Positions 4,975 to 63,875 of a DNA stretch of 64,000 nucleotides are shown here, in pieces. Source of the DNA: a virus; the IMG/VR virus record IMGVR_UViG_3300032116_000089, positions 1 through 64,000 of that record. The stretch is one strand, 5' to 3'. Every line of letters begins with the position of its first letter. Position 1 is the first letter of the stretch. The notes beneath the pieces were generated by a model, which was not told the origin of the DNA, did not search any database, and saw only the letters and a list, made by a program, of their open reading frames with translations. The translations under genes were made by a program, and so were the position numbers.

Positions 4975-5010
4975 AAAAATCTCCCTATATTTCGTTGGGG
5001 TACACTGTAA

Positions 5011-5017
5011 TATACAC
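5011..5017 (-). promoter_or_regulatory. GTGTATA putative late promoter
   Basis: Minus strand reads AAAAAAAGTGTATATTACAG, 37 nt upstream of ATG 4974. Confidence 0.65.
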
Positions 5018-15481: not shown

Positions 15482-18400
15482 TATTTCCCTCTTACTCTAA
15501 GGTTAAGAGCATCTGATGAATTCCATGTCCCGCTAGTGGTAAGTGTGAGGCTTGAAGACAATGAAACGCCGCTTTCACTCTGGTTGAATAAATATAAACC
15601 AGATGGCAACGAGTCAGATATGCCACTGACACCACCATTATACAATCCTATTGTATTATACACATAGGCAGAATTTTCAGCATTCATAATTAATGGTAAT
15701 TGTGAACTAGGCTCTAAATTCTTGCCGTCTATATATAGGGACATTACAGAATCTAAAAGTACTCCATATTGATAATATCCAAGCACAGACTCAATATATG
15801 GTCGATGGGCTATAAATCCACGAATAGATGGGTCTTGACCAGATACCTCTAGGAATATCTCACCTCTGCTATTTGGTATGATTATGCCGCTAGAATAATA
15901 TGGCTTATTATTTCCACTATTTGTGAAATTCAACACAATTGTTGGTTCGCCATAAATATCGCGAGTTCCAAACAGTCGCGCATTGATCCAAGATCCAGAA
16001 TTCGGCAGCGATGGATTTTGCCTCTTGAGCATAATATCTTTTGCATATACTGCTCCAAGATTTAAAATATTATTTCCAGAGGCATTATCAACTCCAGCAA
16101 AAACAGTATAATCAGCATCCGATCTGTATGGTCTAGATAAATATATTGTTTTACCAAATCTTTCACCGCTTGAATTTGGAGATTCAGACACAAACTTTTC
16201 TACTAATGACCAAGATCTTGTTTTATTTTCCCAATCAATAACTTTATTTTCATATAGATAAATTGCCCCAGCTTTATCTGCATTAATTCCACTTGTTTCA
16301 AGTAATAATCTATTTCCAGAAATACCTAAATCAAAAATATTTCTTTGTGGAATATCAAACTGACCATTGAAATTCTTTCTTGCGAAAGCTCCGCTATCAA
16401 ATACATTTTCATAGAAAGTATCAAATTTGTGATTTGGCGCACCGATGATAATTGTATCATTCTTAATGTCAATATCATGTCCAAATTGATCTGAATAGGA
16501 ATTTACTCCACTTAGTTGACCCATTAAAGATTCTGGTCTAAACTTTTTGCTGTACTGCCATAAAAGATTGCCAGATCTTTCAAACATATAGACAGCCCCA
16601 GCGCCGCCGTCGTTTCCTAAATGTAAACTTACTCCACTATCCCAAGGTGTAATTGTTTCTGAAGAGAAGGCTGAGAATGGAGAACCAGCCATAATTTTGT
16701 CTTTGTGGACACACACCGCATAACCAAATAGATCTCCGGGATATCCAGAAACAAAATGATCCAAGTCAAGATAATCATATCCTTTATCTTTCAGTAACTG
16801 TGGCAAACCGCCACCTATTGGAGCGTCGGTGTATCTTACGCCATCAATAATGCCGCTGAACCTAGCGGTAGATGCATGATTAAACTGTTCGTAATAAAAT
16901 CCGCTAATATATTCGTTTCTAATTCGTGCTATGACCTTTTCGTCTTTTTCGCCTTCCCACGGTAAATCTGGACGTTTTGAAATATACTGCGGCAAGTATT
17001 GAGATTCGTACTTGTTAATTATGCTTGCCGTAACTGTACCAGATCCTCCAAAGTTTCTATTTATTCCACTAAGAGAAGAATTAAGATAATATTTACTTGG
17101 ACTACCTCGTTCTGGAGAAATAAGTTTGTTATATACATCAAATTGTCTGCCGCTATTATCAGATGTAAATGTAGTCTCTGGATATAGACTGCGAATGAAA
17201 GAATATGTCTCTTGTGGAATAACTCCATTATTATCAACTACATATCTACCTTGAATCATACTAGAGTCTGTTATAACTGTGATGCGTGAACGTGCATATC
17301 CAGCGTCAAATGGTGATAAAATTTCTATTTCTTGAGCGGCCACGACAGGACCATCATCTATCAACTGATTGCCCAAGAACATACATCTATCTGAACAATA
17401 CTTTGTATTATCTGTACTGATTGGTCTAATTACATCAACATATTCTTTTCGTTCTTCTTGCTTGTCTGAAACTTGAACTATATCGAATTCGTCTGTTGGA
17501 ATGGCAATTGGTGTAGACGAAACCTTAGTAAGTATTGGAATTAATACTCCAGATATTCCAACAAGTTTTATACTGCGTGGGATAATATCTGTTCCACTAT
17601 GTACTCTAGGAATGGCACATGAAATATAGATTTCGTTAAATGATTCGTTAGAGGCATTTTGAAATTTGATGGTTTTAGTTGCAGAAGATTGTGAGTCTTC
17701 CCCAAAGAATGCGGTTACAATTGGTAAGGAATCATATATTTGACCATTGGTGTCTAGTTCTGGTATAGAATATGATCCATTGGCACCATTAACTGGGAAT
17801 GATGGAGCTACAGATGCTTGAGCGATATTAAATTTTAGTGAGCCTATCTCAGATGGAGTATCAGCAGATGTAGTAATGAATAACTTATATCCAGATCCAG
17901 CCTGAGTTGGGACTGTTAGTCGCACAATACCAGCATTCATACTCCATAAAGTATCTATATTTTCTTTTGGAATTTCATCATATATAACTTCATCCGAAAG
18001 CGCAAAACCTATTCCACCTTCTGACAATGCTAATGGATAGCATTCTGCTGGAGTCTGGAATGGTAGATAGAATTCATCTATGTAGTAACGTGGATCATTA
18101 AAAAATCTACCGCCAACTTGGTGATCTCTATCAATTCTGAAGTAATATATTTTCGATTTTTGATACTTATTTAAATGAGAAAGATAAACTGGTTGTATGT
18201 CAATACCTAATTTATTGCATAGTATCTGTGCCTGCTGTACACTTTCTAATGAACCATCACAAGTAATAACTAGTTTTTTATTGCCAATATTTAGCCAATT
18301 CTTTAGTAGCAATAGTTCGTAATTACTTGGCTGACTATTTATAGCGGCAACCCAAGCAACATTGTAGCGACCATCTAATGACTCTGTTAATACATTTTCA

Positions 18401-26575: not shown

Positions 26576-29500
26576 TTATACTATTCCGCCATCTGTTCGT
26601 TTTAGTCTTCCGCCGTCTACAACCTTAAACTGATTTTCAATAAGTCCAAATAGTTCCTGTTTTACTTGACCGGTAAGAGCCTTTAACAATCCGCCGTCAT
26701 TTAAATTAATACTTACGCTAGTAGAATCTAACTTAATACTTATCTTTGTATCTCTGAGTGATTGAACATTTTCTGATAATACTCTATTGAAGTTTTCTAA
26801 AGCTGCAACAAAATTTGTCATTCCTTGACTTGGTGCTTCTGGGCTTGAACTTCCTTCTTGGCGATATCTTACCATTCCTCCTCTAGCCATCATGGCGGCA
26901 CCACCATCACTATTAGATACACCAGCGCCGCCGTTCATAGCTTGTAAAATTTGTAAATTATTACCACGCTGAACTGCACCCCTATTCACCACAAATTCAC
27001 CGGGAGTCAACATGGCTGGTACGGTATCTGTGCCGCGAGGCACAAAAATACCTCTATTTGCGTATATTAAACCACCACGGGCTTTAGCGACAGCTGGCAT
27101 ATTTTCAGCCCTATTAGCTTTTTCGGCTGCTTTGTTGCCTCTTTCTAAGACTTCGTTAAATTTTAATTGAGCGCTATTCACATTTATGGTGGCTGTTTGA
27201 ACTTGCATTTCTGCCATTTCTGCTCCAAGTTCTCCAGTTTCTCCGAGCATACCGCCCAATTCACGTAGTCTAGCTTTACTAGCTTCTTCTTCAGCCGTAG
27301 TACCGGCCATAACCTGTGCTGCTCTCATATCTGTTACGCCTCTGGCTGATAATGCAGCACTAGAAGCGGCCTCAGTTAATCCGCCAGCCCCAGCCAATCG
27401 TTGACCATATAAAGTTTGAACTCCAGCATCTTGTTGACGTTTAATGTCTAGGGCGGCAGTTCCCAATGCTTCTGCTCCGTATTGATTCATTAATCTTTGA
27501 TCACCACTAGCGATAGCGGCTGTAGCGCCAACTGCGGATTGCTGTTTAAAGAATGCTTCCACATCGCCCTTGACTAACGACTCCATAGAATCTTTTTCAA
27601 GTTTATTCTTTTCTTCTGTTATCTTTAGTTGTTCTTCCTCTAATTTAATTAGCCCCCTAATAGTATCAATTTGTGTTTTATATGCTTTTTGTAAATCTTT
27701 TTGTGTTTCATCAGCAGTAACTCCAGCGGTTCCAGCCATACCACCTTGAGATGTTCTTTGAGATTCAATTTGCGAAAACCTTCCGCGAATTTCTGCATTT
27801 CTGCGTCTTAATTCACCAGCATCACCAGTTCGCATAGATGTCAAGCCAAGCCTAGAAGCTTCTACGTTAGATTTAGCTAATAAATTTCCTCTCTTTTCTT
27901 GCATACTAACAGCTTGGCCGCCATACTTAGCTTGTATTTCTCTACCTTCCGACAGTAAATCTATCGCCTCTTGTTGTGCTGCTACAAGATTTCTTTCAGC
28001 ATCAATTCGTTTCTTAGTAAACTCAGTAAGAACCTGTTCAGCTTTTGCTCTTTCTTGAGCAATTTTCTGAATAGGTTCAAACATTTTCTTTTGTTCTTCT
28101 GTCAACTTATCTCCAAAAGCGCTCAAGTCTCCAGCAATTATTTTATCTATATCAGAATCCTCTAAGTTCATATTCTTAACAACTTTTGTGAGGTTTTCTC
28201 TAGCTTCGTCAGATACTCCCGGCCCCAAACCGCTAGCAAGTTCTTCCGCCATTCTTTTCTTTATCTCATCAGAACTTAGATCTTTGAAATCAGCTTCTTT
28301 CATAGAATTTTTGACATTTTCAAATGCTTGATTGTAATTGGCTTGAGCTTGAGTAAATGCGGCTACATTTCCTTCAAACTTAGCAACCATTTGTGGAGAT
28401 ACTCCCATGCCTCGTAAATTATTAGCAACATTTTGTGCGGCATCTCTTATCTCGTCTGGATTCATAGCTTGTGCAGCGCTACTAATAGATTCCTGTAAAA
28501 ATTCAACATCGCTGACAAAAGTAGATCCACCAACTTCTAATCCAGCGGTAAATCTAGACATACTAGCAGAGAGTGCAGAAGCCGTTGCGTCAGCTGATCT
28601 AAGCCCTAAATTCATAGCTTGAAAAGATTCTTTCGCACGTTTTACTTCTTTTTCAATATTCTTGATTTCTTCATTGACTTGATCCAACTGTTCTGCCATT
28701 TGTGCTGCTGCCGACCTAGCGGCTTCAGCACCCTTCTTATCGCCAGCAAGATCCAAATCTGATCCCAAGACCCTCAATTCAGATATTCTACTTTGAAGAT
28801 CTCCGGTAGCTTCTTTTCTAATATCTTCTGTTTTGCCGCCTCTAACAATTCGCGATCTAATAGCAGCTTGTCTAGCTGGACTTTCTATATTAAATGCTTC
28901 TGCTTGCTGTTTTGCTGAAGAATTTATTTGTTCAACATTTTCTTTACTAAGTCTTTCATTTCTTACAGATGAGCTTTCTCCTAATAAGCCTCCCAGTGTA
29001 TAAACATCTCTTAGTGCGCCTTCTCCACCAAGTAATCCTGCTATTTGACCTATTGGTCCAGCAAAAGATCCTTTAGCGGCAGAACCTAAACTGCCAGCTA
29101 CAGAACCCCCAGACAACAACCCATTATATTGAGATCTATTTTTTAAATTTTCACGAACAAAGTCAGTTGTTCTTTTTTCTTGCTTTGACACTTCAGCGGT
29201 TTTGGATCTTATTCTGGACAATGCTTCTGATGCAGTTATACTTCCATTGCTAAAGTCATTCATAGCGGAAGTTGCTGTTTTTTGCGCTTGTTCTAGAGCC
29301 TTTTGAGTTTTTACTGCTCCAGCCTGTGCTGCGGCTAAAGCAACAGCACTGTCATATGTAGCACCACCAAACAGAGTTCCAATACCGGCTAAAAATCTGT
29401 CTCCAGCTTCACCAAATATACCAGATATTGCACCTGTCACTAGAGTAGCTACACCAGCACCTAGTGCGGCACCTATGGCTGCACCAATTGGTCCACCAAG

Positions 29501-32500
29501 TATAAAACCTATGGCGGCACCGGCAGTTGCGCCACCGGCTCTTACAACATTTGCGCCTTCTAGTCCAGCTTTTTTACCGGCAATTTCTTCTGCTTTTGCG
29601 ACATTTCCGCTGTCAATTGCCCCCTTTAGTTGATTATCGTAATCATATAAACTAGTTATCACAGAATTAAAAGCTTGAGTGGCAATATAAGCAGATCCTG
29701 CGATGGCAATAAGTGGACCAGCAAGTGCAGTTGCATTTTGAGTAAGAGCGCCAATTGAAGAACTAGCAGATCCTAATGAACTACCTAAAGAAGTTAAACC
29801 TTTGCCAAGCGTGGGAGATAAACTAGATACAGAAGATCCCGCTCTCATTAAACCTCTACCGCCTTGAAGTGCAGCACTTCTTCCGAATTTACTTGCTCCT
29901 TTTATACCTTTCCCACCAAGAAAATCCATCATACTTTGTGAATTTAATTTTACACCAAATGCCTCTAAGGCAAATCCTACCGCTGTAATAGTTGTGATTA
30001 ACCCCAAGATGCTATGAGCCATTTTTAATGCGCCAGATGAAGATTCATCAAGTGCTGGTAAAAATCCTTGAACTATACTAACGCCCATAGAAGCTACCAT
30101 CATTTTATTACCAGCCGCAACACCCATTGCGCTTTTTGCGGCAGAGTTTTGCGCTTTGGTATTAGCGTTAACAGATGCGGTATTGGTATTTACACCACCA
30201 ACTTTGCTACCCATAGTTGCACCCATAGTAGCAAAACCACCACTTGGAGTAGCAGACGGTGATGTAGTTTGGATCGGCCTCCTTGGAGAAGGTGCGGCTG
30301 ATGGTATGGATATAGGATTGCTAGCTTTAATGTCTCTTGAATTTTTAGCAAGAGCATTAACATATTGTTCTGCGGCACTTCGTATTTTATCTTGTGACGC
30401 TCCACTTTTCTGTAGTTGTTGTAAGTTATAGAACATACTGTCTACTACATCTATATTGACCGCAACAGAGCGTCGATTTAGTTTGGCATTCTCATCTATG
30501 ATTGCAGAAAAGCCGGGTAACACACTGTTTAAATAAACTAACTGTCTTTGATATTTTTGTGTAACGCTTTCACCACCAACGGCGCTTTTTGCTAATGAAT
30601 TCAAACCTAGAGCAAGTTTTGTAAAACCTCCAGCAGTAACTCTATCCAAAACTGATGCCATCTTCAGTGCAGCTACATCTAATTTTCTAGCACCTTCAAA
30701 AGACAATTTTTGTGCTGGAAGATCAAAAGCGGGTCTAGCGGGCTTGGCTCCGCTGCCAGATGTACCGGTAGCAAATCGCTGTACAATTCCGCCCTTGGCA
30801 TATTTACCAACTTTATTCATACGGTTTAGATTACCGTAACCAATCCTCTGAGCGGATGAACGATTTACAACAAACTCACCGGGAGTTAATAGGGCTGGAA
30901 CAGTATCTGTACCAACACCTCCACCAGTAGCATATCTGCGGCGTCTTATAGTTGCATCAACAATTTTCTTTTCTCTGCTTCTACCTTCATAATCTCCAAT
31001 AGATTTTCCGGTTTTCTTTTTCACCGCTTCATCAATTCTATCTTGTCTTTCAAACTTTGCCGCCTCAACAGCATCAAGTAAGGGAGAACTTATTCTCTTT
31101 GGTAATAAATTCATTTTTTTGATTTCAGAATCCGACATGATAAAATCTCGCCATCCTGTTGATTGGCGTTGATCAAGCATATCTTTTAGTTTTTCTACTG
31201 TTATATTTCGTTGTTTTGCTGCCGCAATAAGAGAATCTTCATCAAATGCCATACTTCGCTTGGGCAATTCATTGCCGACCCCACCACCATCGGCAAATTT
31301 TTGAATTATACCGCCAAAGTGTTTTCGTTGACCAGTTGTTCTTAAACTAACACCGCCCTTATAGCCATTAATAATATCATTAGCTAATTTTCTTTGTATA
31401 TTACCACCAACTTCACCGTAACTACGCTTGGCTTCAGCTTTAATCAACTTATTTACTTGTGCTTGACTACCAAACAAAGTCCCAAGCTTGTCTTTATTTT
31501 GAGATATTGCAGATCTTGGGAAGTCAAAATTTGCTCTACCACCAGCGGCTGTTGCTCCCGTAAAAGCTGAGATCATCGCTTCAAATAAATAACCTTCTAT
31601 AGTACTTCTGACTTGATTATCCGACTGAATTTTGCCAACTATGCCGGTCATCAATTTTTCATTTGTGTTTAATCCCGGCGGTAAATCAAGTAATCCTTGA
31701 GATACAACAGAATTGATAGTAGAATTTACTCCAGTAGAAATACCATCTAAAAATCCCTTATGAGCAGCTGCTGCATATTTAGCATTATTTTCTAAATTTC
31801 TTTTTCCTTCTTCCATTCCGGGATAGAATACTGGATAAGTAGCGGGATTTATAACAGCGTTAACACCGCCTTTGATTTCGTCTGGCGACAAACCGGCTTG
31901 AGAGGCAGAAATCTTAGCATATTTATTGCCAGCAGGAAGTGTGAATGGGAATGGTTGAGTTGCAGAATAACCTCCTTCAGATCCCTTTGGTGGAGTTAAT
32001 ACAAATGCGCCTATCTGCCCATCATTTACATCAAACTGTATGTTACCAGCACCAGCGACATCTTTATTTACGCCATATTTTCCATCTCTTTTTTTTGTAC
32101 TTTTTAGTTTTTGTGTGGCACCAACGATAGCTCTACCGCCGTTAGCATAACGATTTTGGTTCATAGCCGCCAAAGTACCAGCACCCATTTTATTAACACT
32201 GCTCTTGCGTATTACGAATTCTCCGGGTTGTAACATCGCTGGAACAGTATCTCTATTACCACTGCCGGGAACTAATCCGCCTCTAGCAAAACCAAGAACT
32301 TTACCGCCCTTGTTGTAAGTTCTTCCAGATGTTGCGCCGCTCATTATACCACCAAAAAAACCTCCTAAACCTTTAGCAATTTTGAAAGCCGCAAGAGCGG
32401 CCAATAAAGGCAGTAGAGGTTTAATAGAATCAGCAATCTTGATTAAAGCCGATGCCAATGACAACGCAGTATTTGCCATTACTTGGAAAGTAGATGTTTC

Positions 32501-33661
32501 TGTTATACTACGAATTAGAGCAAGGAATTCTTCTTTTACCTTCATAATTCTAATAGCAAGTGCCGCTTGTGCAGATGCGGCGTCATTAGTAAGAGAATCA
32601 TTTGCTTTTGTTGCAACATTCAAAGCCTGTTGAGCAGTCGTAAATTGCTGTAAAAGTGGCAACACTTTGCCAATTTGACGAAAGCCACCAAGTTCTTCAG
32701 CGATGCTAATAAATGTGAGGTCGCCTTCTCCTAATCCAGCTAAAGCCTGACTTAATCGTTTTATGGCTTCATAGGGACCAACGAACTTACCATTCAAATC
32801 TACAAGTTCTACACCAAACTGTTTTAAGAATTCAATAGTTTTTGGTCGCTGAATACGTGTGAAGATAGTACGTAAACCAGTACCAATACTTTCTGCACTT
32901 TCTCGCGTTGTTGCTCTAACGCTAGTAAATAGTGCCAGTAGTTCATTTAAACTGCCGCCAGAAGCTTTAAACACGCCGCCAGTTCTACGAATAACGTCAA
33001 TTAAGTCACTTGCTTCTACAGCGAAAGCGCCAGCAACAGCATTAATGGACCCTAACTGTGCTTCTAAAGCGCCTACACCTTGTTGAAATTGTGCTAAAAT
33101 AGCAATAGCACCTTCTGCTGTTTCAGTAATACTATCAAAGTTAGGAGCAAGCGCAGCTTTTGCTAGAGTTCTTAAAGCTACGGCAGTATCTTCAGCAGTT
33201 AAACCGGCCTGTGCTAATACTGTAGAAACTTCTAATAAATCTGAGGATGCAACGCCAAAACCGGTAGACAAACTAGTAATTTGTTTAGTAAGGCCACGAA
33301 GCTGACTAATGCTTTTACCAGTTACCTGAGATACTTTAATCAATTGACGTTCAAAGTCAATAGCATCTTGTACAGCATTTCCAAGAGTGTTAGTAAATAA
33401 ACTAACTGCTCTGGTTGCTACAGAAAAAGCAGCAAACCGCCGAACAGAAAGGGAAAAAGCTTTTCCCATTCTTTCAGCGGCTGTTGTTGCTTGATTGGTA
33501 GATTGAGTTACTTGCTGTAATTGACGCTGTGCTTGTGCAGACCCCTGCACTTGTACATTAACATTAACCCCACTTAACTGGGATTGTATTTGTTGTACAA
33601 CTTGCCTAACGTTATTTGGAGCTTGTAATTGTAATTGTGCGGTCAGTACGAATCTTGACAT
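26576..33661 (-). CDS. tail tape measure protein (TP901-type core) with extra domains
   Basis: 2361 aa, Ala/Gln-rich and helical. Core motifs DFERQLIKVSQVTG and TRESAESIGTGLRTIFTRI, hydrophobic Gly/Ala segments, three DTVPAxLxPGEFV motifs, AAGGAG RBS. Confidence 0.92.
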   Translation of the reverse strand: MSRFVLTAQLQLQAPNNVRQVVQQIQSQLSGVNVNVQVQGSAQAQRQLQQVTQSTNQATTAAERMGKAFSLSVRRFAAFSVATRAVSLFTNTLGNAVQDAIDFERQLIKVSQVTGKSISQLRGLTKQITSLSTGFGVASSDLLEVSTVLAQAGLTAEDTAVALRTLAKAALAPNFDSITETAEGAIAILAQFQQGVGALEAQLGSINAVAGAFAVEASDLIDVIRRTGGVFKASGGSLNELLALFTSVRATTRESAESIGTGLRTIFTRIQRPKTIEFLKQFGVELVDLNGKFVGPYEAIKRLSQALAGLGEGDLTFISIAEELGGFRQIGKVLPLLQQFTTAQQALNVATKANDSLTNDAASAQAALAIRIMKVKEEFLALIRSITETSTFQVMANTALSLASALIKIADSIKPLLPLLAALAAFKIAKGLGGFFGGIMSGATSGRTYNKGGKVLGFARGGLVPGSGNRDTVPAMLQPGEFVIRKSSVNKMGAGTLAAMNQNRYANGGRAIVGATQKLKSTKKRDGKYGVNKDVAGAGNIQFDVNDGQIGAFVLTPPKGSEGGYSATQPFPFTLPAGNKYAKISASQAGLSPDEIKGGVNAVINPATYPVFYPGMEEGKRNLENNAKYAAAAHKGFLDGISTGVNSTINSVVSQGLLDLPPGLNTNEKLMTGIVGKIQSDNQVRSTIEGYLFEAMISAFTGATAAGGRANFDFPRSAISQNKDKLGTLFGSQAQVNKLIKAEAKRSYGEVGGNIQRKLANDIINGYKGGVSLRTTGQRKHFGGIIQKFADGGGVGNELPKRSMAFDEDSLIAAAKQRNITVEKLKDMLDQRQSTGWRDFIMSDSEIKKMNLLPKRISSPLLDAVEAAKFERQDRIDEAVKKKTGKSIGDYEGRSREKKIVDATIRRRRYATGGGVGTDTVPALLTPGEFVVNRSSAQRIGYGNLNRMNKVGKYAKGGIVQRFATGTSGSGAKPARPAFDLPAQKLSFEGARKLDVAALKMASVLDRVTAGGFTKLALGLNSLAKSAVGGESVTQKYQRQLVYLNSVLPGFSAIIDENAKLNRRSVAVNIDVVDSMFYNLQQLQKSGASQDKIRSAAEQYVNALAKNSRDIKASNPISIPSAAPSPRRPIQTTSPSATPSGGFATMGATMGSKVGGVNTNTASVNANTKAQNSAAKSAMGVAAGNKMMVASMGVSIVQGFLPALDESSSGALKMAHSILGLITTITAVGFALEAFGVKLNSQSMMDFLGGKGIKGASKFGRSAALQGGRGLMRAGSSVSSLSPTLGKGLTSLGSSLGSASSSIGALTQNATALAGPLIAIAGSAYIATQAFNSVITSLYDYDNQLKGAIDSGNVAKAEEIAGKKAGLEGANVVRAGGATAGAAIGFILGGPIGAAIGAALGAGVATLVTGAISGIFGEAGDRFLAGIGTLFGGATYDSAVALAAAQAGAVKTQKALEQAQKTATSAMNDFSNGSITASEALSRIRSKTAEVSKQEKRTTDFVRENLKNRSQYNGLLSGGSVAGSLGSAAKGSFAGPIGQIAGLLGGEGALRDVYTLGGLLGESSSVRNERLSKENVEQINSSAKQQAEAFNIESPARQAAIRSRIVRGGKTEDIRKEATGDLQSRISELRVLGSDLDLAGDKKGAEAARSAAAQMAEQLDQVNEEIKNIEKEVKRAKESFQAMNLGLRSADATASALSASMSRFTAGLEVGGSTFVSDVEFLQESISSAAQAMNPDEIRDAAQNVANNLRGMGVSPQMVAKFEGNVAAFTQAQANYNQAFENVKNSMKEADFKDLSSDEIKKRMAEELASGLGPGVSDEARENLTKVVKNMNLEDSDIDKIIAGDLSAFGDKLTEEQKKMFEPIQKIAQERAKAEQVLTEFTKKRIDAERNLVAAQQEAIDLLSEGREIQAKYGGQAVSMQEKRGNLLAKSNVEASRLGLTSMRTGDAGELRRRNAEIRGRFSQIESQRTSQGGMAGTAGVTADETQKDLQKAYKTQIDTIRGLIKLEEEQLKITEEKNKLEKDSMESLVKGDVEAFFKQQSAVGATAAIASGDQRLMNQYGAEALGTAALDIKRQQDAGVQTLYGQRLAGAGGLTEAASSAALSARGVTDMRAAQVMAGTTAEEEASKARLRELGGMLGETGELGAEMAEMQVQTATINVNSAQLKFNEVLERGNKAAEKANRAENMPAVAKARGGLIYANRGIFVPRGTDTVPAMLTPGEFVVNRGAVQRGNNLQILQAMNGGAGVSNSDGGAAMMARGGMVRYRQEGSSSPEAPSQGMTNFVAALENFNRVLSENVQSLRDTKISIKLDSTSVSINLNDGGLLKALTGQVKQELFGLIENQFKVVDGGRLKRTDGGIV

Positions 33662-33693: not shown

Positions 33694-34581
33694 CTATTCA
33701 CTTTCCGTTGCTATTGACTTCTTTTTTTTAGTTGGTTTTTCTGACTGCTCTGTATCGTCTGGCTTTATTTCTTTGTTGTCATCATCTAGATAAGTGACTT
33801 CTGGTATATAATTACCATTTTCGTCCAACGGATTACCATCCTTATCTACCCTATTTCCTTGATCGTTTAGCCAGTATCCTTGCTTGTCTATTCTGCGACC
33901 ATCTGTGTCTACAGTCTCACCCTTGTCGTTAACTAAGCTAAGATCCTCATTAACGAAATGGAACATTTTAAGGAATTTATTTTCTGGTAATTTGGCTTCG
34001 AAATCCTTATCAACAGAATACATCATTCCGGCTAATGTTGATGCCGCCATAAAAGCGATTTCATCATCTCCGCGCTCTTTATAGTCTTCTATATCATTAT
34101 ACACTTTCTGACCATTTTCGTAAAACGCAGAATTAGCAACTAGATAATCAAAACGAACATTATCTGATATGGACTCTGCGGTATTTTGCTCTAGACTCAT
34201 TTTTTCAGCAATCAAGTCACGAAGTTCATTTCGCTTAATTCTCATCTGTATAGCAATTCGTTTGCCCTCAGAAGCTTTTAGCTTTTTACCGCCGTTACCA
34301 CTAACGTAAAGTTGTTTTTCTAAATCGGCAATTTCTTGAACAGTTTTCTTTTGTTCTTCGTCCTTACCTTCGTCCCAAATACCTTGCTGCTTCATGAACT
34401 TTTCAAGTTCTTTCTTAGTCATAATTCCATCCCTTACGCAATCTGTCCAAGCTTTTGCTCCAACTCTTTGGGCTTGAGAGATTAAATTACTACTGGGGCG
34501 TTTAACAGTTAGTTTAATTGTTTCTTCTTTTCCATTTCGTGTTCTTTTAACTTCTACTGATTTTTCCTTTTCCTGTGACAT
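33694..34581 (-). CDS. putative tail assembly chaperone
   Basis: Charged helical protein immediately upstream of the tape measure. ATG 34581 has a GGAGG RBS. Confidence 0.55.
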   Translation of the reverse strand: MSQEKEKSVEVKRTRNGKEETIKLTVKRPSSNLISQAQRVGAKAWTDCVRDGIMTKKELEKFMKQQGIWDEGKDEEQKKTVQEIADLEKQLYVSGNGGKKLKASEGKRIAIQMRIKRNELRDLIAEKMSLEQNTAESISDNVRFDYLVANSAFYENGQKVYNDIEDYKERGDDEIAFMAASTLAGMMYSVDKDFEAKLPENKFLKMFHFVNEDLSLVNDKGETVDTDGRRIDKQGYWLNDQGNRVDKDGNPLDENGNYIPEVTYLDDDNKEIKPDDTEQSEKPTKKKKSIATESE

Positions 34582-34593
34582 ATTTTCCTCCAA

Positions 34594-34929
34594 TTATTTA
34601 TTGTTAGGGGTAACTACGGGTATTTTGATTTGATATCTTAACCATTCTATATCATATTGAGCTAATTCAGCATCAATATTACGAGCTTGATTATTTCCAC
34701 GATCTAGTATTTCTGATCTCACTTTATTGTATAAAGTCTTCATTAACTCTTGGTCTTTTGTAAGCTGTCCACCAGACTCGCTGTTCCATAAAAAACTAAA
34801 ATTTTCTTCTATTGTACTTAATGCGCCTATCATAGTTGTCTGAATTTTCTTTTTAAGTATCTTGGACAATCTATCTTTTGATTCAGCTTTATATTTTGAA
34901 TCTCTTATTTTCTTATAATCTGGTTCCAT
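34594..34929 (-). CDS. hypothetical protein in the tail chaperone region
   Basis: 111-aa helical ORF with AGGAGG RBS. Confidence 0.6.
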   Translation of the reverse strand: MEPDYKKIRDSKYKAESKDRLSKILKKKIQTTMIGALSTIEENFSFLWNSESGGQLTKDQELMKTLYNKVRSEILDRGNNQARNIDAELAQYDIEWLRYQIKIPVVTPNNK

Positions 34930-34930
34930 A

Positions 34931-35971
34931 TTATCCTCCTATTTTTCCTCTCATTTGATTAGTAGCCATCATCTGTATATTGCGTTTTTGATCTGGTAAA
35001 TTTTGATCTTGTATTGTTCCATGTTTTTCAATAGCGGACTGTCTTTGTTTTTTAATCATTTTGCCCATTGGGTCATTCATATCATTAATTTTTGAAGCAC
35101 GATCCTTATTAGAGACTATGAAAACTTCTGATGAATTTTTAATCTTTTCATTATTGGTTTCAGTGTCAAATTCTTTTTCTAATCTTTCTTTTTCACGTTT
35201 TTGATTTTGGATTATAAACCAACCGTCAAGCATATCATCGTCTTCTATAACTTCCTTTTCTGGACATTCTAATGACTCTTGTATATTATCATACATTTGT
35301 GACCAGACTAACAAATTTTTTTGATTATATGTCAATTCAGTATTGGGGGGATTGCAAAATAGTGGGGAGTTTGAATTTTCTCTTACTACCCATAAAGATT
35401 TCCAAGGGTCATTGCGGGCTATGTCTCTAGACTTTTTTTCTGATAAAAAGTGTGACTGCCACTCATCTATGACATATTGCAATGATATATCTTCAAAATC
35501 ATAGATCTTGTTTTCACGATATGTCGTATTTTTGATTATCCACATGAGTCTTTCAGTGGATGCAATGCCCTCGCATGTATTTTGATGATACATGTATTTT
35601 TTGTTTAGATGAGAAGATAACTGTGACTCACCTGCGCGAAGATATTTTCTTATACTATTGACCATATTTTTATCCCTACGAGCGTTGTAAATTTCTACTT
35701 TTAAACGCTCAATATCCTTTTTTAACCCTTCTTCTCTTTTATCGTCGTGAGGTGTCCATAGTTCATTTTCTAACATCCACTCATTAACATCTTCTTCGGT
35801 CATCATTTCTTCTGACAGGGCGTTATCATAGGCTCGTTGATATATTTGACAAGATTTAAAAGATTGATCAATTGTGAGTGGGCGTACTTCTAGATCTATA
35901 TCCTTATAATTTATGAATACTTTACCAGATCTTACCATAGAAACGAAAAACTCCCGCTCATGATGCTTCAT
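34931..35971 (-). CDS. putative tail assembly chaperone, paralogue of 33694-34581 with a distinct C-terminal domain
   Basis: 346 aa between tail tube and tape measure. Shares the MT...W...I..L...Y and QNTxExI...Y.ED pattern with the downstream chaperone. Confidence 0.5.
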   Translation of the reverse strand: MKHHEREFFVSMVRSGKVFINYKDIDLEVRPLTIDQSFKSCQIYQRAYDNALSEEMMTEEDVNEWMLENELWTPHDDKREEGLKKDIERLKVEIYNARRDKNMVNSIRKYLRAGESQLSSHLNKKYMYHQNTCEGIASTERLMWIIKNTTYRENKIYDFEDISLQYVIDEWQSHFLSEKKSRDIARNDPWKSLWVVRENSNSPLFCNPPNTELTYNQKNLLVWSQMYDNIQESLECPEKEVIEDDDMLDGWFIIQNQKREKERLEKEFDTETNNEKIKNSSEVFIVSNKDRASKINDMNDPMGKMIKKQRQSAIEKHGTIQDQNLPDQKRNIQMMATNQMRGKIGG

Positions 35972-35994
35972 ACAGCTTTCTCATAAGCGGGAGT
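35945..35994 (-). terminator. 14-bp hairpin plus U-tract downstream of the tail tube gene, with the next start codon in its loop
   Basis: mRNA reads ACUCCCGCUUAUGA-[GAAAGCUGUAUGAAGCA]-UCAUGAGCGGGAGU-UUUUCGUUU. Stem is fully paired with one G-U. Confidence 0.7.
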
Positions 35995-35999
35995 CTCAT
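35958..35999 (-). CDS. candidate 13-aa leader peptide MRLPLMRKLYEAS
   Basis: AAGGA 7 nt upstream of ATG 35999, TGA at 35960-35958. Covers the 5' arm and loop of the hairpin. Confidence 0.35.
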   Translation of the reverse strand: MRLPLMRKLYEAS

Positions 36000-36042
36000 T
36001 TTTGTATCCTTAAAAATTCCTAATTATTTAGCTATGAGGTAA

Positions 36043-37239
36043 TCAAGGAGTACCGTTATAAATTGGCTCATAGTCTGGATTGTCTTTACTAGCAATTAAA
36101 TCTTGGGGATGTGTTACAGTTAAACTATTATAGGTAGAATAACTATATGTGATAGTAGCATTGCCACCACCAGCATCACCACCAGTATAATTTACTGATG
36201 ATAATCTACTCTTAGTACCTAAATCAAAAACAGTACCATCGTGTAGTCTTATAACGATTGTTTCTTCTGCTGTATTGTTGCCGTAGTTCTTTTCGCCAAC
36301 GTCGAAGCCGTCTTTACTGGTATCGCCTTCTTCGTAAGCGTTGATAAAATCGCCACTGACAGCAATAACTTCAAACTCAGAAGTTACTTCTACGGGGAAA
36401 TTTGCAAATCTATAGTATGGTGATTTTCTGCCAAGTTCTTGAATACTTTCTCTGTTTAAATCGCAGTTAATAGAGCAATTCTGTACGTGTACTCTATTTG
36501 TATTGTTAGAGCTATTGTAAGCATTACCCGCCGTGGCTGACTGAGTTACACCAAAAATTGATAATGGTAATATAGAATTTTTAATATCTACATTTTCTCT
36601 ACGCTGAACGCCACCGTAGAATGATCCAGTTTGTAAATTCTTTGGAGCATCCAAACCGTCGCCAGCAGTAGTAGAATCATCAAGTTGATTTGCTACTGAG
36701 GCTGAAAACTTTGTTGGAGTAATTGACCAAGCTTTATGATTACCAACTAGTGTTAACGACTCTGTGCAATTGCCATCTACTGGGAGAGTAAAGCCAATAC
36801 TACTAACATACATGCCGCTCATTTGTACTTCGACTAGGGCGTTGGCGTCGGTGTCGCCAATATTTTCTACAGTCTCTGGGAAAATACCTAGATAAACATT
36901 TGTTCTCTGTTTTGAACGTGCCACAAGAGATAATTTAGCAGCGCTAGTCAAAGTTTCTTCATCAACTCCGCATGTAGCAACGTGATACATCAGAGGATAA
37001 CCATCAAGAACCTTTTCTAAGGTTACTTCAATATCTGGTACGCCTTCGATATTTTCATAAATATGGATCTGACCTAATTCGAAAACTTGTTCTAGATTGA
37101 ATGTTGTGTTTAGGCCAACGCTCTGAACGCCATGAAGCACCTGCACGTTGTTACTGGTAACAGTTAGTGTGCCAGCATTATCATATAGTGGCTCAAGAGC
37201 AACGGCTTGGCAAGCGTAGAAAATTCTATTGTTGGGCAT
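36043..37239 (-). CDS. major tail tube protein
   Basis: 398 aa with GVQSVGLNTTFNLEQVFELGQ and a second similar unit VQNCSINCDLNRESIQELGR. Lies between neck genes and chaperones, with AGGAGA RBS, its own promoter motif and a downstream hairpin. Confidence 0.75.
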   Translation of the reverse strand: MPNNRIFYACQAVALEPLYDNAGTLTVTSNNVQVLHGVQSVGLNTTFNLEQVFELGQIHIYENIEGVPDIEVTLEKVLDGYPLMYHVATCGVDEETLTSAAKLSLVARSKQRTNVYLGIFPETVENIGDTDANALVEVQMSGMYVSSIGFTLPVDGNCTESLTLVGNHKAWSITPTKFSASVANQLDDSTTAGDGLDAPKNLQTGSFYGGVQRRENVDIKNSILPLSIFGVTQSATAGNAYNSSNNTNRVHVQNCSINCDLNRESIQELGRKSPYYRFANFPVEVTSEFEVIAVSGDFINAYEEGDTSKDGFDVGEKNYGNNTAEETIVIRLHDGTVFDLGTKSRLSSVNYTGGDAGGGNATITYSYSTYNSLTVTHPQDLIASKDNPDYEPIYNGTP

Positions 37240-37277
37240 AATTCTCTCCTATTTTAAGATGGTAAGCTCTAGTTACT

Positions 37278-37284
37278 TATACAC
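37278..37284 (-). promoter_or_regulatory. GTGTATA putative late promoter
   Basis: Minus strand reads GTTTTGGTGTATAAGTAAC, 39 nt upstream of the tail tube ATG. Confidence 0.65.
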
Positions 37285-37294
37285 CAAAACTATA

Positions 37295-38254
37295 TTAAAC
37301 TTCTATTGTTTCTAGTGTCAGCCGCACAATTCCAGCAAAAAAGTTGCTATTTATTAACTTCATGTCTTGAACAGAGGAATTTTTTAATCGTACCCTTCCA
37401 CGGGCATAATTATGGATCAAATCTGGATATCTCAATGCTCCAGAAACTGGAAATCCCATATAATCTAATGGAAAAGCTCCGCTGCTGGCTATGGAGTTAC
37501 TATTAAACATATATATAGTCTTATCATTTTGTAATGACATAATATCTACTAATTTATTTCTAGTATATTCATCTTCGGCTAAACAGTGAAATAAAACATC
37601 AGTTTCAACAAATTGACCACCGCCTAACTGATATCCACGTATATTTCTACGAGGAACAATTTCTATAGCTATGGTTGGAAGTTGCATCCTAGCTTCTGCT
37701 GGTAATTCATATTTAGCTTTATTAAGACTGCCGCCAACTGGCTCTAAAGAAGAATATTGAACTTCGGCTAACCAAGGTAGACTATTGGCATATACCACGT
37801 TGATGTATTTATAACTATATTCGGCCTGTACGACACTACCTGTCGGTATAGGATTGTTGAAAATTACTCTACCATTGTAATAATCAACTTTATGCGCATA
37901 TGTTCCACTCGTATTACTTGGATGGAAGGTGCCGTTCACGTAAACTCCAGATATACCGGGTATTGCTCTACTAGGGCCAATAATTGGTGGAGGTGAGTAA
38001 GATACTCCACTTTGCCAAACCCAATTCTTTCTAAAGCCTTCCCAAACTTTTCCACTTGGATATGTAGGGCTAGGAGAAATATTTAACCTACTATAATCTA
38101 CTGAGTCTGGAGAATTCTCGCCTATGGTAACATTCATATAGTTACCTTTTTCTAGCAATGACCAATCTAAAAACTCAATAATATTATCTTGTAATTCATT
38201 GTTTAATGTATTTTGAAATACATTATCAAATCCCTTTAGTTCAAGATATGACAT
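37295..38254 (-). CDS. putative tail terminator / tail completion protein
   Basis: 319 aa. C-terminal QLPTIAIE...GYQLGGG...DVLFHCLAEDEYTRNKLVDIM fits the terminator fold, and the gene precedes the tail tube. Confidence 0.6.
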   Translation of the reverse strand: MSYLELKGFDNVFQNTLNNELQDNIIEFLDWSLLEKGNYMNVTIGENSPDSVDYSRLNISPSPTYPSGKVWEGFRKNWVWQSGVSYSPPPIIGPSRAIPGISGVYVNGTFHPSNTSGTYAHKVDYYNGRVIFNNPIPTGSVVQAEYSYKYINVVYANSLPWLAEVQYSSLEPVGGSLNKAKYELPAEARMQLPTIAIEIVPRRNIRGYQLGGGQFVETDVLFHCLAEDEYTRNKLVDIMSLQNDKTIYMFNSNSIASSGAFPLDYMGFPVSGALRYPDLIHNYARGRVRLKNSSVQDMKLINSNFFAGIVRLTLETIEV

Positions 38255-43208: not shown

Positions 43209-43247
43209 AAAAAGTCCCCATTTTTGTTTTTAGGCTTCTCTATGTAA

Positions 43248-43254
43248 TATACAC
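43248..43254 (-). promoter_or_regulatory. GTGTATA putative late promoter
   Basis: Minus strand reads GTTTTAGTGTATATTACAT, 40 nt upstream of ATG 43208. Confidence 0.65.
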
Positions 43255-50748: not shown

Positions 50749-50792
50749 ATTATTCTCCTATTATGTCCTTTGAATAACGTTATCTAATGTAT

Positions 50793-50799
50793 TATACAC
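50793..50799 (-). promoter_or_regulatory. GTGTATA putative late promoter abutting the capsid terminator U-tract
   Basis: Minus strand reads TTTTTTGTGTATAATACAT, 45 nt upstream of ATG 50748. Confidence 0.7.
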
Positions 50800-50834
50800 A
50801 AAAAAGCCACCCCCAATCGCTTGAGGATGGCTTT
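50800..50834 (-). terminator. rho-independent terminator after the major capsid gene
   Basis: mRNA reads AAAGCCAUCCUCAA-GCGA-UUGGGGGUGGCUUUUUU: a GNRA loop, G-U pairs and a U-tract. Confidence 0.9.
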
Positions 50835-50860
50835 AATGTGATGGATATTTCTAAATTATA

Positions 50861-63832: not shown

Positions 63833-63868
63833 GATGTCCCCTTTGGTGTGTGTGAATATTCAGTATTT

Positions 63869-63875
63869 TATACAC
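63869..63875 (-). promoter_or_regulatory. GTGTATA putative late promoter
   Basis: Minus strand reads TAAGTGTATAAAATAC, 37 nt upstream of ATG 63832. Confidence 0.6.

Follow-up and report, generated by a model that had tools for sequence, protein, structure and literature searches.

How does a long-tailed phage, which needs hundreds of tail tube subunits and few copies of its tail chaperones and tape measure protein, set the output of genes that lie next to each other? Gene order, transcription terminators and the frameshift that yields the G/GT chaperone pair are known solutions to this problem. The question is posed in another form by an RNA hairpin that we analysed in an uncultured virus (IMG/VR record IMGVR_UViG_3300032116_000089), where it stands between the gene for the tail tube protein and the genes that lead to the tape measure gene. 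The DNA studied, referred to below as the window, is the stretch from position 1 to 64,000, that is, the first 64 kb of a 90.4-kb record judged to be ~57% complete. The genes near the hairpin, like every feature described here, lie on the minus strand. We find that the hairpin is a real RNA-level functional element, and that it constitutes a cis-regulatory RNA, conserved among relatives, placed where the tube gene meets the genes that precede and include the tape measure gene. A terminator, a lock on the next gene's start codon and a key in the form of a short leader open reading frame (ORF) are apparently combined in it within ~75 nucleotides (nt).

The initial annotation had proposed an attenuator-like switch at this place, and its statements about the sequence were all correct. 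The parts of the element in the window, and the gene that starts within it, are the following.

36011-36007, minus strand: AAGGA Shine-Dalgarno sequence (SD) of the leader, 7 nt upstream of the leader AUG
35999-35958, minus strand: leader ORF of 13 codons, MRLPLMRKLYEAS, with its AUG at 35999-35997, in the +2 frame, crossing the 5' arm and the loop
35994-35981, minus strand: 5' arm of the stem, ACUCCCGCUUAUGA, extended to 35996 via G-U/A-U pairs
35980-35964, minus strand: apical loop of 17 nt, containing at 35971-35969 the AUG of the gene for a 346-amino-acid (aa) protein
35963-35950, minus strand: 3' arm of the stem, UCAUGAGCGGGAGU, which in the 346-aa gene begins with the last base of codon 3 and ends with the first of codon 8 (H-E-R-E)
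35949-35941, minus strand: U-rich tail, UUUUCGUUU, corresponding to codons 8-11 (F-F-V-S)
34931-35971, minus strand: 346-aa gene, encoding an all-alpha protein that is an N-terminal paralogue of a 295-aa protein encoded further downstream

The stem is fully paired over 14 bp, as had been stated, with 13 Watson-Crick pairs and one G-U pair, and two to three further A-U/G-U pairs are possible. When 121 nt around it were folded with RNAfold, a check suggested in the annotation, the energy was -37.3 kcal/mol, compared with -22.4 +/- 3.0 kcal/mol for dinucleotide shuffles (z = -4.9), and none of 200 shuffles was as stable. The hairpin by itself accounts for -28.0 kcal/mol, and its core occurs only once in the 90-kb record.

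Homologues of the 346-aa protein were found first on 25 viral contigs and then on 76, and these provided 63 distinct upstream regions with protein identities of 36-77%; counts of loci below refer to these 63. All of them form the same hairpin fold, with energies from -17.9 to -29.6 kcal/mol. Imposing the 16 pairs of the window on the 63-row alignment, we found 89.4% of the cells paired, against 36-51% in controls in which the 3' partners were slid by 1-3 columns. Covariation of the stem, another proposed check, was evident as double-sided changes at 11 of the 16 pairs (57 cells), and none of the five measures was reached by any of 500 shuffles. The eighth pair, for example, changes from C-G to U-A in nine sequences, with U-G intermediates in 13, and three loci (L079, L093 and L096) carry whole-arm variants in which pairing is retained. 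Codon usage gives independent support for a conserved RNA structure. Codon 6 is CGG in 61 of the 63 loci, compared with 2% of the arginine codons in the remainder of these genes, while GAG is used at codon 7 in 60 loci and at codon 5 in 51, compared with 27% elsewhere. Searches against Rfam 15 gave at best chance-level small nucleolar RNA and microRNA models (E at least 0.17), and 20 related loci returned no gathering-level match. The hairpin is a candidate for a new cis-regulatory RNA family of uncultured phages, one built on known regulatory principles.

An inverted repeat that is long and perfect and lies between two genes might also mark an RNase III-type processing site or a DNA palindrome, serving as a protein operator or forming a cruciform. 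We regard explanations of this kind as very improbable. The stem, at 14-17 bp, is shorter than typical RNase III substrates. As for the DNA palindrome, G-U pairs are frequent at three positions of the stem (in 21, 16 and 13 sequences) and make sense on the sense strand only; because each of them would become an A-C mismatch if the other strand, or a symmetric DNA site, were the functional form, the structure belongs to the sense RNA, and the palindrome was rejected on these grounds.

The AUG in the loop is the true start of the 346-aa gene. In all 63 loci a start codon lies within the loop and in frame (62 ATG, one GTG), and the frame is open throughout. One further in-frame ATG had to be considered.

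35936-35938, minus strand: second in-frame ATG (codon 12), which might serve as a minor alternative start, in the clade of the window only

If this codon (M12, ATG 35938) were the main start, the hairpin would lie wholly in the 5' untranslated region. We rejected this possibility, as ATG is absent there in most relatives: codon 12 is ATG in 15 of the 63 loci and encodes arginine or lysine in most others, and many loci contain no other ATG at all. It is also countered by the frame that is always open and by two features of the protein, namely an N-terminal helix predicted with confidence (in the AlphaFold model, residues 3-15 are helical with a predicted local distance difference test score, pLDDT, above 90, and residues 1-10 have a pLDDT of 91) and an alignment to the paralogue that begins at residue 2 of the 346-aa protein and residue 3 of the 295-aa protein.

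The annotation had further noted that this start lacks a good ribosome-binding site. We confirmed this for the window, where no 4-nt SD match is present 4-11 nt upstream of the AUG, and the whole clade of the window likewise has no SD for it. AGGAG-type SDs precede most other genes of the phage. In the predicted structures, the region of the main SD was unpaired with a mean probability of 0.28 over the loci, the AUG with 0.70 and codons 4-7 with 0.09, the last value falling to 0.00 in the window.

The leader ORF described for the window, 13 codons with an AAGGA ribosome-binding site, passing through the 5' arm in another frame and stopping in the 3' arm, was borne out, its UGA (35960-35958) lying within the 3' arm 11 nt beyond the A of the main AUG. 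Whether the leader is conserved in related phages was a separate matter, and here the answer was divided. What is kept is an SD-led start upstream of the core of the 5' arm, found in 49 of the 63 loci; the peptide and its frame vary, and 14 loci have no leader. The AAGGA box is nearly invariant over the 63 aligned loci, and where a leader is present its SD is AAGGA in 48 of 49 cases and AGGA in the remaining one, with a spacing of 4-11 nt. The leaders start 25-40 nt upstream of the main AUG, use all three frames and range from 1 to 17 codons, sharing residues only where the arm imposes them. We therefore rejected a functional leader micro-protein, as the peptide is not conserved. A +1 shift from the leader into the main frame, which had been offered as an option, is ruled out as well, given that leaders occur in the +1, +2 or 0 frame and several end before the main AUG.

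Relative to the main AUG, the leader stops lie at +11 (23 loci), +1 (9), -2 (6), -5 (3), -10 (2) and -16 (1), and five further leaders in the main frame end between -24 and -3. Of the 49 leaders, 41 have their stop between -5 and +11 and the other eight between -24 and -3. By analogy, this geometry is that of translational coupling by RNA unfolding or re-initiation. The distribution of the leader is consistent with such a role. Fifteen loci have no SD for the main AUG, and a leader is present in 14 of these, including the entire clade of the window; conversely, 13 of the 14 loci without a leader have a GAGG SD in the loop, 5-7 nt upstream of the main AUG, so that only one of the 63 loci has neither. 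As these 14 loci do without it, the leader is dispensable where GAGG is present in the loop. The SD of the leader has a predicted probability of being unpaired of 0.53 on average (65 loci were folded for these averages) and of 0.37 in the window, compared with 0.28 for the main SD region and 0.09 for the 3' arm (codons 4-7). This predicted accessibility fits a model in which the hairpin locks the main start and the leader opens it. We also considered a three-step relay in which the leader SD is itself masked by the stop region of the tube gene (CUCCUUGA, which pairs with UAAGGAU in the fold of the window), and rejected it, since even the closest relatives have not kept this pairing partner.

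The second aspect of the hairpin is its likeness to an intrinsic terminator. The stem is stable and GC-rich, with 14-17 bp and a CUCCCGC/GCGGGAG base, and in all clades a U-tract follows it directly: in the nine nt after the stem, six are U in the window, and the mean over the 63 loci is 6.2 with a minimum of 4. Where codon 8 is UAU instead of UUU, a changed 5' flank lengthens the stem by two pairs (alignment pairs 43-99 and 44-98), so that the U-run still begins directly behind it. Elsewhere in the window, a canonical intrinsic terminator with a 14-bp GC-rich stem, a 4-nt loop and UUUUUU lies directly after the 335-aa capsid gene (50749-50860, minus strand), and GTGTATAATACA, one of the copies of a promoter-like motif, comes immediately behind this terminator. 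The presence of this terminator suggests that the polymerase of the late genes may respond to such signals.

This motif, GTGTATAWWAC, stands before several structural genes.

5006-5017, minus strand: copy of the motif
15652-15663, minus strand: copy of the motif
37273-37284, minus strand: copy of the motif, GTGTATAAGTAA, ~35 nt upstream of the tube gene and a putative late promoter
43243-43254, minus strand: copy of the motif
50788-50799, minus strand: copy of the motif
63864-63875, minus strand: copy of the motif

On its position, GTGTATAWWAC is a candidate late promoter resembling a -10 element. A loose form of the pattern was not enriched, with 25 matches versus 18.7 +/- 4.2 in shuffles, and no exact copy of the motif occurs on the minus strand from the hairpin to the end of the tape measure gene.

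The hairpin could be conceived as a plain terminator that also stabilises the mRNA of the tube gene. The loop start and the leader would then simply result from compaction and from the arms' palindromic CAUG, with ordinary initiation on the 346-aa gene whenever the stem breathes. The stem and the U-run, which are kept in every locus, are what this explanation predicts, and it can also account for the 14 loci without a leader, for some of the ATGs in the 5' arm, which follow from pairing with CAUG, and for the similar terminator after the capsid gene. We nevertheless consider it unlikely. With 50-160 nt of intergenic space free, the AUG is in the loop in 63 of 63 loci; in 49 of 63 the leader has its SD-led start upstream of the arm and not inside it, a position that survives changes of frame; and the main AUG in the clade of the window has no SD.

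The reading that we favour, which we judge to have an even chance of being correct, is that the hairpin works in two ways, as an intrinsic terminator of partial efficiency and as a lock on the 346-aa start that is opened by translation of the leader. According to this model, the GC-based hairpin and its U-run would end most transcripts of the tube gene, leaving a protective hairpin at their 3' end, and read-through transcripts alone would reach the 346-aa gene, the 111-aa and 295-aa genes that follow it and the tape measure gene. On the read-through RNA, the same hairpin would lock the 346-aa start, with the AUG exposed in the loop, codons 3-8 paired and, in the clade of the window, no SD. The leader, with its accessible AAGGA, would then be translated through the 5' arm to a stop 11 nt past the main AUG, which would melt the stem, and a terminating or a fresh ribosome could start at the main AUG, by re-initiation or by coupling through RNA unfolding. 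The 346-aa protein would as a result be made in a low and fixed amount compared with the tube protein and with its own paralogue, which is strongly translated.

In this model the leader acts on read-through RNA after transcription, as the distance from the leader AUG to where the U-run ends is only ~60 nt and neither a pause element nor an anti-terminator fold was seen among the folds examined. A different possibility is a ribosome-mediated attenuator of the pyrBI type, in which a leader ribosome close behind the polymerase blocks the terminator and read-through reports translation capacity. Like the pyrBI leader, which spans its attenuator, the leader here runs across the 5' arm to end within the 3' arm, and both U-run and stem are conserved. 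The ~60 nt available, however, make co-transcriptional anti-termination by the leader ribosome doubtful on kinetic grounds. Upstream of the 3' arm the nascent RNA has only a weak fold, of -14.6 kcal/mol for 126 nt of the window, and an examination that was not exhaustive revealed no shared or anti-terminator fold and no pause element. In addition, the leader shows no regulatory codon pattern, its peptide and frame vary, some leaders end 10-24 nt before the main AUG, and 14 of 63 loci have none. Overall, a mechanism of the pyrBI type seems to us decidedly unlikely.

Several points weigh against the terminator that leader translation unlocks. Its two central steps, termination and coupling, are read from the anatomy of the locus. 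The loop, of 17 nt in the window and 16-19 nt in relatives, is longer than the 3-8 nt of common intrinsic terminators, and a scan for consensus terminators made no call here. That the leader stops cluster is in part forced, as both other frames receive stops from AUGA and CAUGAG. The 14 loci without a leader, which include several lineages neighbouring the clade of the window in a quick tree (the only phylogeny made of the loci), retain the AAGGA box, so that the box must have a further role. Finally, the association between the presence of a leader and the absence of a main SD is not phylogenetically independent.

A second RNA domain was found in distant relatives of the window. In 28 distinct loci of these clades the intergenic region is 96-161 nt long and contains a further structured domain upstream of the leader SD, which we term domain E.

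~40-110 nt upstream of locus position 2501: domain E, in L062, L069, L070, L073-L078, L080-L083, L086, L087, L089, L091, L093, L094, L096, L099-L104, L108, L110 and L113
36018-36035, minus strand: AUAGC...UAGGA segment of the window, which in alignments includes the first of two conserved GGA boxes

Domain E consists of an outer helix of variable, covarying sequence around the invariant UUGCGAUAGC and AGGAYAGCRAGUG, and an inner helix CUUGC/GCRAG. It was judged by folds of the individual sequences and by a duplex test of cognate and non-cognate strands, in which cognate outer strands paired with -12.4 kcal/mol on average, compared with -4.7 +/- 2.75 kcal/mol for non-cognate strands, 1% of which reached the cognate mean. 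RNAalifold on a MAFFT alignment of the domain missed the helix P1, owing to register shifts. Five large genomes, four of them near-complete, carry one copy each, and no Rfam match was obtained for the domain. From its sequence, the AUAGC...UAGGA segment of the window looks like a remnant of domain E. In some distant clades (L062, L070, L087, L077, L074 and others), a further small hairpin ending in ...AAGGA lies directly after the stop of the tube gene, ahead of domain E. Domain E is a candidate for a new class of cis-regulatory RNA in phage late genes.

The hairpin, joined by domain E in the distant clades, could act as a translational operator that binds a phage or host protein, for instance in autogenous control by the tube or the 346-aa protein, and that sets translation of the 346-aa gene with termination being irrelevant. 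Protein binding would suit the arm sequence CUCCCGC/GCGGGAG, which is nearly invariant among relatives, the occurrence of each element as a single copy per genome, and the extra structured domain with invariant loops directly upstream in the distant clades. Against it, whole arms have been swapped with pairing intact in the three loci with whole-arm variants, coding and pairing, acting as a double constraint, account for the near-invariance as well, the conserved U-run is left unexplained, and no binding protein was identified. An operator of this kind therefore appears improbable. A broader possibility, which we hold tentatively and think unlikely, is that the entire leader is a multi-domain RNA switch, made in the distant clades of domain E, the leader ORF and the start-codon hairpin, in which domain E senses a phage protein or a small molecule and sets both termination and translation via the leader ORF. 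If so, free tube subunits or the 346-aa protein would be candidate ligands, and the RNA device would govern a frameshift-free analogue of the G/GT ratio.

The genes around the hairpin are listed below, in the direction of transcription.

36043-37239, minus strand: 398-aa major tail tube gene, with its stop UGA at 36045-36043 and a fused double tube domain like that of T5 pb6
34594-34929, minus strand: 111-aa gene with a strong AGGAGG SD
33694-34581, minus strand: 295-aa gene, with start ATG 34581 and a GGAGG SD, encoding the paralogue of the 346-aa protein
26576-33661, minus strand: gene of the 2361-aa tape measure protein

For the 398-aa protein, the AlphaFold model is of moderate quality (pLDDT 62, predicted template modelling score 0.70), and the tail tube label given in the annotation is supported by Foldseek matches in the Protein Data Bank (PDB) to T5 tail-tip/tube, the major tail protein of SH-Ab15497 and the tail tubes of DT57C and P74-26 (E 1e-7 to 7.5e-4, probability 0.99-1.0, template modelling score about 0.4). 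The protein is thus predicted to have a siphophage tail-tube fold with a duplicated domain. The presence of a tape measure gene downstream of the hairpin was likewise confirmed, by matches to PHROG tape measure families (E 1e-18 to 6e-11). No PHROG or Pfam match was obtained for the 398-, 346-, 111-, 295-, 319- and 215-aa proteins.

The chaperone label of the 346-aa protein fared less evenly. It agrees with the position of the gene and with the paralogy to the 295-aa protein (residues 2-161 of the 346-aa protein, 22% identity, E 1e-7), but no homology to known chaperones was found in sequence or fold. The structure model is all-alpha with a pLDDT of 85, and searches of Pfam, PHROG, PDB sequences and Foldseek gave no match below E 0.07, with nothing significant in the Foldseek PDB, BFVD or protein atlas sets. 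On position and paralogy, it is possible that the 346-aa/295-aa pair is a frameshift-free counterpart of the G/GT chaperones, in which case the hairpin and leader would set the ratio of the two proteins in place of a frameshift. The mechanical ORF call at the second gene (33694-34593) begins at a TTG right after the previous stop, and the likely start is ATG 34581; with this ATG and its GGAGG SD, neither a frameshift nor an overlap is needed there. At the junction of the 111-aa and 295-aa genes, no frameshift site was seen on reading, which was not a systematic search.

The group to which this virus belongs is a sizeable and wholly uncultured group of large phages, here largely from freshwater metagenomes. 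Its relatives are contigs of 120-175 kb, and among 50,697 deposited phage genomes none matched the stretch by megablast at the DNA level or by tblastn at the protein level. The sequencing runs that contain the stretch are mostly lake or freshwater metagenomes, and those holding it in full carry the label fungus metagenome. Two contigs assigned to bacterial metagenome-assembled genomes (MAGs), L118 (VFHP01000009.1, a SAR202 MAG) and L119 (CAXDOW010000046.1, a Flavobacteriales MAG), contain the 346-aa family together with hairpin and domain E. Both are probably contigs of phages that ended up in bacterial bins, and the bin labels are no reliable host assignment. In two freshwater metatranscriptome runs, assembled contigs cover 36341-37206 (tube gene), 34241-34394 and 37911-38065, and none crosses 34674-36340; as assembled RNA contigs show neither 3' ends nor levels and uncovered parts prove nothing, these data were not used as evidence.

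The element brings together features that are known separately. In the translation attenuation of ermC and cat, the main start is sequestered by a hairpin, one arm of which overlaps a short SD-led leader, as is the case here. The difference is that the phage element has no conserved stalling peptide or inducer logic, and its variable leader looks constitutive. In the pyrBI attenuator, the leader ORF also passes through an intrinsic terminator hairpin, whereas no pause site was seen at the phage locus, which has no upstream nucleotide-sensing U-tracts and places the start of a structural gene in the loop of the terminator-like hairpin. In phage T4, hairpins hide the starts of gene e, gene 49 and I-TevI on read-through transcripts, and a late promoter inside the hairpin opens the lock. 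Sequestration of a phage late-gene start on transcripts from upstream is common to both, but no promoter-like motif was seen inside the hairpin studied here, which has a leader ORF instead. The G/GT tail chaperone pair of lambda, whose ratio is set by -1 frameshifting, resembles the present pair in that two proteins with a common N-terminal domain, one presumably needed at low level, are encoded between the tube and tape measure genes. In the phage analysed here they are separate paralogous genes, and we detected no sequence or fold homology to G/GT.

If it acts as we propose, the element would offer a clean model of how RNA structure and an upstream ORF set protein ratios in virion assembly, as well as a compact part for tuning synthetic operons. 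Intrinsic terminators are known to delimit late structural gene clusters in SPP1 (PMC6316719), and the element shares with these, and with the terminator after the capsid gene of its own genome, a GC-rich stem and a U-run directly after a highly expressed structural gene. It differs from them in its loop of 16-19 nt instead of 3-8 nt and in a 3' arm and U-run that code for the next gene. Both RNA-unfolding coupling and termination-reinitiation are established mechanisms (reviewed in PMC12548453). As in the coupled pairs fr/MS2 coat-lysis, rpmI-rplT and nifLA (PMC12548453), an upstream ORF would be translated through a structure that blocks the next start, and the distance between its stop and the downstream AUG is a few to ~40 nt, on either side. 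In the phage element, by contrast, the upstream ORF is no real gene but a dedicated leader of 4-17 codons, and the blocking hairpin is terminator-like and carries the AUG in its loop.

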